A DNA stretch of 55,376 nucleotides, from assembly GCF_003334255.1 (NCBI RefSeq), contig NZ_QOWU01000035.1, one strand, 5' to 3'. Below are positions 10,677 through 19,924 of this stretch, in pieces (positions within the stretch are counted from its first letter, which is position 1; every line of letters starts with the position of its first letter). The stretch comes from Escherichia coli (lineage in GTDB: Bacteria > Pseudomonadota > Gammaproteobacteria > Enterobacterales > Enterobacteriaceae). The position numbers and the translations under genes are program-made. The notes beneath the pieces were generated by a model. The model saw nothing but the letters and a program-made list of their open reading frames with translations, had not been told where the DNA came from and searched no databases.

Positions 10677-11455
10677 TATTCCCACCCAGAATAACCAACT
10701 TTATTTTTATGCGGTTTCACCGCACCCCGTGATGTCGCCGGGAAGCCCCGGTAAAAAATAATTAGCATTAGAATAGTTGCGATAAGCTGCAATAAGCAGA
10801 GCCACCTTTTTGGTTTAATAAGTCCTTACAAATAGAAGGGGGTCTTTACACTTATCTAAGATTTTTCCTAAATCGACGCAACTGTACTCGTCACTACACG
10901 CACATACAACGGAGGGGGGCTGCGATTTTCAATAATGCGTGATGCAGATCACACAAAACACTCAATTACTTAACATAAATGTATAAGTCATACTTTTGTT
11001 TTGGGTGTATTTCAATCTGTTAAAAAGTTTTTCGCTACGCTAGCAAGCAAAAATGAAACAGGAATAATCGAAATGGGATGTTGCGCACAGTTAAAATAAC
11101 TCACCGTAAATAATCATCTGCTATAAATAATCACTTTCATGCAATACCAGATAAGCTATTTTTAAACAGACACTTACCGCACAACAAACTAATTAAATAC
11201 AAAGAAAGGCAACAATCAACTTTATGTTAATAAAATGTTTTGCATATATTAACCACTTGTTTAATGCGGAGAATCAGTACATTATTTTCTTATAATTACA
11301 GTTGAAATCATATGATCACCGAGAGTGATTGATTAATTGTCTTTACTAATAATCAGACTAATATTTACCTGTTTGACTGAGTTGGGATTGCGTCGTTTCT
11401 CCATTAGGAGTAAAGCTTTAATGTCACCTGAAGTTCACAGAATAAGGAACAGGTT
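10677..11455 (-). promoter_or_regulatory. flhDC class 1 promoter, long 5'UTR and upstream regulatory region (shared divergent region with uspC)
   Basis: About 780 bp of AT-rich non-coding DNA upstream of flhD with no ORF of note; established as a multi-regulator input region. Confidence 0.7.
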
Positions 11456-17831: not shown

Positions 17832-18627
17832 GGTTCTCTCCAGCTTTAGTGTCGTTTTGTGTAGGGCAAAAACGAATGACATTCGTTAAATTAATCGGAA
17901 AACAAAGCATTACCTTTTAACTAAAAGATAAGTGACCGTGTTGACATAGTTTTAGCGAGAAATTAATTCTCCATAGGAGAGCAATATCACATCGCAGAAT
18001 TACAGTGAGAACGTGCATAAATTTAGCGGGAAAAGACATAAGGGAAAGCCAATTTGTCAGACAAATTGTCGAATGCACAGCAGATTAATCCATAAGATTA
18101 GCCTGGAAATCCTTGTTGTCTTTGGTACCCATGCGGGATGTCTTCTTTTTAACCAGTCAATAGGCCGCATTACCTGGCGTTGAGTTTTTGAAATGGTGTA
18201 ATAACCGCAACTCAAAGATGTGGAAAATGCACGCCATTCATTTCGCCATTAATTATCACTGTGCTCATTAATTAACAGAACACGTATAATGAGAGCCATC
18301 TCGCAAAAATGAAAAAACCTTTTATAAAATCATCATTTCATCATGAATTCAAATTCATTGATTAATATCAACAAGATACAAAAAGCACTATCATTAAAAT
18401 TCATTGCAGTTACATTGATTTCATCAATGAAATGTAAAAATATATAAACTTGATGATTTAAGCATTTTCTTATACCCGTTCAGACGTTATTCTTATTTCA
18501 GATCATCGTCAGAATTGACTCCACGATCACATTTCGGACCGGCAGAAAGGAATTATTCTGCAAACAGTAATTATGGTGTTTTGATTTATCTTGCACCTCT
18601 CCACTTCTGGATATAAGGATATTAGGT

Positions 18628-19131: not shown

Positions 19132-19174
19132 TCATCATCGGCGCTAATGCATTGCGCCGATGAAGGTTTTGAGA

Positions 19175-19211
19175 AACCGCTGCCTCATCTGTTTGAAGCA
19201 GCGGTTTTTTT
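19175..19211 (+). terminator. Intrinsic terminator downstream of ftnB
   Basis: Stem CCGCTGC/GCAGCGG followed by TTTTTTT, preceded by a second hairpin CATCGGCGC/GCGCCGATG. Confidence 0.6.
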
Positions 19212-19461: not shown

Positions 19462-19546
19462 CGTAAACTCCTGATAGCATTTTGAAAGCCGTTATAGTAG
19501 CGACTTCACATCTTCAGCGATAGTCACATCCACCGTCATCAGGACA

Positions 19547-19574
19547 CAAAAAAACCTGCCGGAGCAGGTTTTTT
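19547..19574 (-). terminator. Bidirectional intrinsic terminator immediately downstream of azuC
   Basis: Stem CCTGC/GCAGG flanked by an A-run on one side and a T-run on the other (AAAAAAACCTGCCGGAGCAGGTTTTTT). Confidence 0.6.
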
Positions 19575-19575
19575 G

Positions 19576-19662
19576 TTATCGGAACATATTGCCTGGCGGT
19601 ACGTCTTTGAACGTCTTGCAATAGTTATTGAACATACTTTTCAGGATTTTGCGCAGTTTCAT
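19576..19662 (-). CDS. azuC: Small membrane-associated protein AzuC (28 aa; transcript formerly annotated as sRNA IsrB)
   Basis: I translated the minus strand by hand: ATGAAACTGCGCAAAATCCTGAAAAGTATGTTCAATAACTATTGCAAGACGTTCAAAGACGTACCGCCAGGCAATATGTTCCGATAA gives MKLRKILKSMFNNYCKTFKDVPPGNMFR; too short to appear in the ORF track. Confidence 0.85.
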   Translation of the reverse strand: MKLRKILKSMFNNYCKTFKDVPPGNMFR

Positions 19663-19744
19663 CGCGGCACTCCGACCATTTGTTATACAGGTGTTATTGT
19701 CTTTGCGCTTATAATATGACAACCATCACAAAAATCAATCTTTA

Positions 19745-19760
19745 TGTGATGCAAATCACA
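19745..19760. promoter_or_regulatory. Candidate CRP binding site (TGTGA-N6-TCACA) upstream of azuC
   Basis: Perfect palindromic half-sites TGTGATGCAAATCACA about 85 bp upstream of the azuC start codon. Confidence 0.5.
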
Positions 19761-19924
19761 TAAATACCCCTTTAATGTTATAAAAATGATAATCAAAAAA
19801 CAACCCCCCCATTTCTGACACCTACAGATGGCAAGAAATAGCGCCTGCCAGGCGTCTTTTCCGGCCATTGTCGCAGCGCTGTAACGCGTAAAATAGTGCT
19901 TTCTCTTACTCTTCTGGCTGGACC

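Follow-up and report, generated by a model that had tools for sequence, protein, structure and literature searches.

Within a stretch of 55,376 nucleotides of Escherichia coli DNA (contig NZ_QOWU01000035.1, hereafter the window), a short intergenic region on the minus strand was identified with high confidence as the E. coli azuC/AzuCR locus, i.e., the gene for the 28-amino-acid protein AzuC together with the small RNA (sRNA) that contains it, with a CRP-repressed promoter as previously described. All of this, including the dual function of the RNA and the two CRP boxes considered below, is already known from the literature and from RefSeq. The locus served as a positive control, in that hand translation of a short intergenic open reading frame (ORF) together with the reading of motifs recovered a real, regulated small-protein gene. 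Small additions to the known locus were also obtained. Thus, two CRP boxes, promoter, ORF and terminator were found to form a conserved unit in at least 11 enterobacterial genera, and the strongest CRP box and a motif recently assigned to FNR were found to be one and the same sequence.

Identification of azuC

The preliminary description of this region, made from the sequence alone, had proposed a 28-codon azuC gene on the strength of a hand translation and had named an interruption of the frame as grounds for dismissing it. On re-reading, the minus strand from 19662 to 19576 ran unbroken from ATG to TAA, and the encoded product (MKLRKILKSMFNNYCKTFKDVPPGNMFR) was found by exact sequence look-up to match AZUC_ECOLI, the stress response protein AzuC, letter for letter. 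The same protein scored 75.9 bits (E 1.3e-21) against a cut-off of 30 on the NCBIfam equivalog model NF033642 (stress_AzuC), with coverage of profile positions 1-26 of 26. Alignment with annotated azuC, which the preliminary description had suggested as a check, placed the coding sequence (CDS) on exactly the same bases in K-12 (NC_000913, b4663) and in a RefSeq record of 100% identity. Identity between the window and E. coli strain H6 (NZ_CP010170) was 100% over the 401 bases compared, and this 401-bp stretch was present, as judged by megablast, in 5,420 of 5,426 complete E. coli genomes. The azuC label ("stress response protein AzuC") was carried by all of the RefSeq matches listed that span the region; azuC is therefore not an unannotated gene. 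The mechanical ORF list, on the other hand, showed the azuC frame only as a 48-amino-acid ORF with a TTG start (19576..19722, minus strand), and only when the minimum length was set to 20 amino acids. A 28-codon ORF alone means little here because 39 ORFs of at least 20 amino acids overlap the surrounding 2.5 kb, and it is the identity to a known gene that constitutes the evidence.

Translation of the frame was also evident from comparison with related loci. Syntenic loci were gathered by way of the neighboring protein YecJ from 80 species-representative genomes, and azuC was located in them by tblastn. The comparison set used throughout consisted of 59 full-length sequences, i.e., the window and 58 loci from other Enterobacteriaceae species, which together represent at least 11 genera. 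Variation at the first, second and third codon positions of azuC was 0.034, 0.067 and 0.238, respectively, and this 3.5- to 7-fold excess of third-position variation over that at the second and first positions is the signature of a translated frame. The GGAG that precedes the ATG in the window was found at -14 to -5 in 56 of the 59 sequences. Production of AzuC has been documented with SPA-tagged protein and by ribosome-profiling evidence (Raina 2022, PMC8915982), and the protein, which is amphipathic and 28 amino acids long, binds and stimulates the aerobic glycerol-3-phosphate dehydrogenase GlpD (PMC8915982).

The AzuCR promoter and its CRP boxes

The 28-codon ORF sits inside the dual-function sRNA AzuCR/IsrB, which is 159-164 nt long and pairs with the mRNAs of cadA and galE by way of a region shared in part with the ORF (PMC8915982); translation of AzuC is repressed by FnrS (PMC8915982). 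The transcript was placed in the window (Table 1) by applying a constant offset of -1,968,297 to K-12 coordinates, which is valid as the two sequences are identical without insertions or deletions from the promoter past the terminator, and the K-12 transcription start site (TSS) so transferred was 1988001 (Raina 2022, PMC8915982). Because the transcript is 100% identical to that of K-12, the published cadA and galE pairings should carry over. Differences between sources were noted both in the length of the RNA, which is 159 nt in RefSeq and 164 nt in Raina 2022 (PMC8915982), and in the position of the CDS, which the latter paper puts at nucleotides 40-126, its own TSS (1988001) combined with the RefSeq CDS (1987873..1987959) giving an ATG at +43.

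A search of Rfam 15 returned no family at gathering score for the azuC region and only sub-threshold, terminator-driven matches (STnc370 and rsmX). Those to STnc370, a Salmonella sRNA family, scored 33.4 and 27 bits against a gathering score of 54 and lay at 19516-19580 on the plus strand and at 19543-19626 on the minus strand, respectively. Eight related loci, including Salmonella, gave no match in Rfam, and the similarity is treated as a chance resemblance between terminators. The absent Rfam match says nothing against the identity of AzuCR.

The perfect CRP palindrome reported in the preliminary description was confirmed at 19745-19760 (TGTGATGCAAATCACA; CRP box 1), where it has an exact core and is the sole occurrence of TGTGA-N6-TCACA in the window, 0.09 being expected from shuffled sequences. 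The distance of about 85 bp originally given for it was a fair one, since the near edge and center of the box are 83 and 90.5 bp, respectively, from the ATG. Scoring with a position weight matrix (PWM), proposed earlier as a check under which the palindrome might fall below threshold, gave instead 18.39 of a possible 19.89 bits, the highest score in the window. This score corresponds to the 99th percentile of 148 published boxes and was reached in 0 of 200 Markov-1 random windows. The matrix was symmetrized and built from these 148 boxes, which form the first part of Table S3 in Shimada 2011 (PMC3105977), with both azuC boxes excluded; since the training boxes had themselves been picked by motif within peaks from genomic SELEX (systematic evolution of ligands by exponential enrichment), it is to be regarded as a serviceable matrix and not as a curated set of footprints. 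The only difference between the window and K-12 within box 1 is a C/T difference at the non-contacted spacer position 19751 (K-12 1988048), where the window has TTTGCA and K-12 has TTTGTA, and the PWM score of the K-12 version was 17.64 bits. Table S3 of Shimada 2011 gives the K-12 versions of both boxes under isrB(azuC), as TGTGATACAAATCACA and TATGACAACCATCACA (PMC3105977). The match that ranked second in the window (CGTGATGCAGATCACA, 10938-10953, 17.25 bits) is the known flhDC CRP site, the same box being listed for flhDC in that table.

A second box, which the preliminary description did not mention, was noted downstream of box 1 at a distance of exactly 30 bp. CRP box 2 has one core mismatch and scored 11.62 bits, which placed it third in the window and at the 56th percentile of the 148 boxes. 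The suggestion that a CRP site here would fit reported carbon-source regulation of azuC agrees with published results, according to which levels of both AzuC-SPA and AzuCR are high in glucose, CRP otherwise represses and deletion of crp leads to de-repression (PMC8915982, citing Hemm 2010). The effect of CRP on the azuC promoter is one of repression, not activation (Raina 2022, PMC8915982), and predicted CRP binding sites, in the plural, are marked in Fig. 1A of the same paper. The yecJ-yecR intergenic fragment was, in addition, the most abundant clone (59 clones) in genomic SELEX performed with cAMP-CRP (Shimada 2011, PMC3105977), and the affinity of cAMP-CRP for this region in vitro is thus very high. 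Of the two boxes, box 2, which overlaps the -10 hexamer, is the more obvious cause of repression. The position of box 1, centered at -48.5, is not known as a standard activating position for CRP (i.e., class I or class II spacing).

Taken together, these features read as follows. A sigma-70 promoter (TTGATT-16-TATTAT) drives transcription on the minus strand from 19704 to the terminator (19574-19546), and the product, about 159-164 nt in length, is translated into AzuC from the ATG at 19662 behind GGAG and, according to the literature, also pairs with cadA and galE mRNAs. Transcription is repressed by cAMP-CRP, so that AzuCR is plentiful in glucose but scarce when the carbon source is poorer. 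This repression is most likely brought about by occlusion of the promoter by a pair of CRP dimers with 30 bp between their centers, which would cover roughly -62 to -5 and would thereby bracket the -35 hexamer, overlap the -10 hexamer and exclude RNA polymerase. The strong box 1 probably recruits or stabilizes CRP at the weaker box 2 over the core promoter. That the two boxes are occupied at the same time and that RNA polymerase is sterically excluded is what we infer from the anatomy of the promoter.

Table 1. Positions in the window of the features assigned to the azuC/AzuCR locus
Feature	Position	Strand	Description and basis
CRP box 1	19745..19760	.	TGTGATGCAAATCACA; TGTGATTTGCATCACA on the minus strand; center -48.5, spans -56..-41, abuts -35 hexamer
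-35 hexamer	19733..19738	-	TTGATT; promoter scan
CRP box 2	19715..19730	.	TGTGATGGTTGTCATA on the minus strand; center -18.5, spans -26..-11; covers spacer and first two -10 bases
-10 hexamer	19711..19716	-	TATTAT; promoter scan; 16-bp spacer to -35
AzuCR (IsrB/IS092; K-12 azuR b4434) transcript	19546..19704	-	TSS 19704, 3' end about 19546; mapped from K-12 ncRNA (noncoding RNA) 1987843..1988001
Shine-Dalgarno	19670..19673	-	GGAG; 7 nt ahead of ATG 19662; read from sequence
azuC CDS	19576..19662	-	28 codons and TAA; translation uninterrupted; product MKLRKILKSMFNNYCKTFKDVPPGNMFR, then stop
Intrinsic terminator	19546..19574	-	A6-CCUGC-UCCG-GCAGG-U7; folding

Conservation of the locus in Enterobacteriaceae

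The tblastn searches located azuC just upstream of yecJ, at a distance of 100-200 bp, in about 60 of the 80 species. These belonged to Escherichia, part of Citrobacter, Enterobacter, Lelliottia, Leclercia, Kosakonia, Huaxiibacter, Silvania, Pseudescherichia, Pseudocitrobacter and Pseudenterobacter, and exact sequence look-up found the name AzuC in Mangrovibacter and Klebsiella oxytoca as well. Among the same 80 genomes, no azuC was detected by tblastn next to yecJ in Salmonella arizonae/diarizonae, Citrobacter koseri, the C. freundii complex, Buttiauxella and one Escherichia sp. The distribution of azuC is thus patchy, but it extends beyond the "limited number of enteric bacteria" referred to by Raina 2022 (PMC8915982). 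Loci without azuC from Salmonella enterica subsp. arizonae/diarizonae, Citrobacter and Buttiauxella were L010, L032, L016, L022, L024, L031, L033, L041, L044, L045, L049, L050, L052, L054, L058, L062, L076-L078 and L082 of the collection. In Escherichia sp. MOD1-EC7003 (L004 1387-1500), homology to the yecR-yecJ intergenic region starts precisely at window 19576, the azuC stop codon; this locus lacks the ORF, the promoter and the CRP boxes but keeps the segment from terminator to yecJ with 93% identity.

Some variation was seen at the ends of the protein. Several Enterobacter and Lelliottia orthologs of azuC start with GTG instead of ATG, the first in-frame ATG of Pseudocitrobacter azuC is at codon 3, and most AzuC orthologs from outside Escherichia are 27 amino acids long and lack the final Arg.

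Both CRP boxes were present in all 59 sequences and were always 30 bp apart. In box 1, G5, T6, G7, A8, T15, C16 and C18 were each found in 59 of 59 sequences, A17 in 56 and A19 in 57, the first T was T or C about equally often and the central spacer was free to vary, such that 46 distinct 16-mers were recorded. The half-sites TGTGA and TCATA of box 2 were kept in 56-59 of the 59 sequences, depending on the position. Conservation of at least 90% extended over the -35 and -10 hexamers, much of the 5' untranslated region, the ORF and the terminator but not over the sequence upstream of box 1.

Alternative readings of the ORF and of the palindrome

The mechanical ORF list presents 19576..19722 (minus strand) as a single 48-amino-acid ORF, and the locus was initially described solely as an sRNA, IS092/IsrB. 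The corresponding alternatives, i.e., that the real product is the longer ORF read from TTG 19722 or that the RNA is purely noncoding and its 28-codon frame accidental, are nevertheless extremely improbable. TTG 19722 is located upstream of the TSS at 19704 and within CRP box 2, and no in-frame upstream start was found in 43 of the 59 sequences, the upstream open stretch ranging from 1 to 56 codons; the 48-amino-acid ORF was rejected since it begins upstream of the TSS and has no conserved counterpart. A noncoding RNA is difficult to reconcile with GGAG ahead of the ATG in 56 of 59 sequences, with a third-position variation that is 3.5- to 7-fold higher than at the other positions or with the tagged AzuC and ribosome-profiling evidence in the literature (PMC8915982). 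Similarly, box 1 is found 172 bp ahead of the ATG (19925) of yecR, in a region between divergent genes, and CRP sites in such regions often serve both promoters (Shimada 2011, PMC3105977), yet the possibility that it is an activator site of the yecR promoter and close to azuC only by accident appears quite unlikely. Both boxes were kept at fixed distances from the promoter and ATG of azuC in 46 azuC-bearing loci without a yecR homolog in the approximately 1.3 kb upstream, and the position of box 1 relative to the -35 and -10 hexamers of azuC was invariant. Because both boxes are kept in these 46 loci, they belong to azuC and not to the divergent neighbor, and the assignment of box 1 to yecR was rejected on this basis. 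Box 1 could additionally serve yecR in Escherichia.

Several points weigh against CRP-mediated occlusion as an account of the azuC promoter. The mechanism itself is drawn from promoter anatomy. Taken alone, box 2 scores no better than about 2.8 chance matches per window, and its conservation could partly reflect that of the -10 element which it overlaps. The K-12 sequence versions U00096.2 and U00096.3 presumably differ by an offset of about 1,976, and the mapping of a published FNR peak to the azuC TSS rests on this value. The peak in question, an FNR chromatin immunoprecipitation sequencing (ChIP-seq) summit that Myers 2013 lists at 1,986,025 (U00096.2) and assigns to yecR, maps to about the azuC TSS. 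Changes in occupancy measured by IPOD-HR (in vivo protein occupancy display, high resolution) were located "further upstream" than the annotated CRP sites (Ekdahl 2025, PMC12266141). Moreover, the latter study gives the coordinates of the palindrome to FNR, its FNR motifs at K-12 1,988,039-1,988,058 (window 19742-19761) being the same palindrome as CRP box 1, and reports de-repression upon mutation of the motif or deletion of fnr. Motifs for PhoP and NarP were placed just upstream of the FNR motifs in the same work, again with de-repression when these motifs were mutated (PMC12266141). The region that contains the PhoP and NarP motifs was poorly conserved beyond Escherichia.

It is conceivable, though the balance is against it, that the palindrome at 19745-19760 serves mainly, or in addition, as an operator for FNR through which azuC is shut off anaerobically, in which case CRP would act chiefly through other sites or through a shared hybrid site; hybrid CRP/FNR sites are known, e.g., that of pepT, an example which appears in the reference list of Myers 2013. 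The sequence of the palindrome, however, matched the CRP core at 10 of 10 positions as opposed to 8 of 10 for the FNR core (TTGAT-N4-ATCAA), and both of the FNR mismatches were at bases that set the CRP consensus core apart from that of FNR. At these bases the CRP-type nucleotide was always found (G5 in 59/59 and C18 in 59/59), and mismatches to CRP were fewer than mismatches to FNR in 58 of the 59 sequences. FNR-like matches with no more than two mismatches occurred in the window at chance level, with 36 found compared with 31 expected, and it was the yecJ-yecR fragment that CRP SELEX recovered most often (PMC3105977). A purely FNR-type site was rejected, as an 8/10 match to the FNR core is found at chance frequency and the CRP-type bases are present in 59 of 59 sequences. 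CRP is accordingly regarded as the primary reader of the palindrome and FNR as a possible secondary one. The reporter with a mutated FNR motif cannot tell the two regulators apart because the mutation also destroys the strongest CRP box, and genetic evidence for FNR at the azuC promoter needs mutations that separate CRP from FNR. We consider tentatively, as a minority view, that the palindrome is a shared CRP/FNR operator or else that the recently published "FNR site" of the isrB promoter is the high-affinity CRP box, whose mutant phenotype was assigned to the wrong regulator. If the operator were shared, a single site of 16 bp would combine carbon and oxygen signals at the promoter of a dual-function sRNA.

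The only zero-mismatch FNR match in the window was an exact consensus, TTGATTAATATCAA, at 18358-18371. This sequence is located between araF and ftnB, in AT-rich DNA, and precedes the ATG of ftnB by about 260 bp. In the FNR ChIP-seq paper (Myers 2013), ftnB goes unmentioned in the main text.

Terminators and plus-strand transcription

The azuC CDS was said in the preliminary description to be immediately followed by a bidirectional terminator. The adjacency and the two-strand shape of the hairpin were both borne out. Thus, an 11-bp hairpin (19574-19549), flanked on either side by A and T tracts, was found 2 nt past the azuC stop codon, with a U7 run and a folding energy of -18 kcal/mol (z -5.3) on the minus strand, and the plus-strand fold of the same hairpin had an energy of -14.3 kcal/mol and a U6 tail. 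The terminator pattern was kept in 54 of the 59 sequences. It was missed by the promoter and terminator scan, probably because the stem extends into the A/T tracts and thereby uses up the T-run. Termination in both directions was less well founded, as there is no obvious plus-strand transcript for the hairpin to end and azuC shares its strand with the downstream gene yecJ. The convergent gene pair of this neighborhood is ftnB and yecJ, which has hairpins of its own at 19135-19211. These are two strong, adjacent hairpins for which folding of the two strands gave -44.6 and -41.7 kcal/mol (z about -7.5 to -8), and the second of them has A/T tracts on both flanks. The bidirectional terminator of the neighborhood is likely to be this pair and not the azuC hairpin.

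Hints of plus-strand transcription were weak and consisted of a promoter-like match at 19471-19498 (plus strand) and of an in vitro sigma-S run-off signal that has been called "antisense of azuC" (PMC3141248). An ORF of 48 amino acids was noted on the plus strand of the azuC region (window 19573-19719).

Comparison with known systems

The locus most closely resembles its K-12 counterpart (azuC, b4663, and azuR, b4434), with which it shares an identical protein, identical DNA from upstream of the -35 hexamer through the terminator and the same neighbors (ftnB, yecJ, azuC, yecR and ftnA). It differs from K-12 by the one C/T in the spacer of CRP box 1 and by three substitutions further upstream; two substitutions were noted around the upstream G-run at 19802-19809, where the window has GGGGGGGT and K-12 has AGGGGGGC.

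The promoters galP2 and cyaA P2 are repressed by CRP through occlusion, a CRP box that overlaps the core promoter being bound in competition with RNA polymerase. The azuC promoter is like them in that a CRP box overlaps core promoter elements and unlike them in that it has two boxes, at a spacing of 30 bp, with the -35 hexamer between them. Among RNAs, Spot 42 (spf), which is listed as CRP-repressed, is likewise an E. coli sRNA that pairs with carbon-metabolism mRNAs and at the same time codes for a very small protein, SpfP. The sequence and targets of Spot 42 are unrelated to those of AzuCR, in which, unlike Spot 42, the coding and pairing regions overlap (PMC8915982), and the proteins reportedly differ in target, which is CRP itself for SpfP and GlpD for AzuC. 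SgrS/SgrT, from which AzuCR is distinguished by the separate coding and pairing regions of SgrS, by the regulator SgrR and by a lack of sequence similarity, is like AzuCR a dual-function enterobacterial sRNA of sugar metabolism (PMC8915982).

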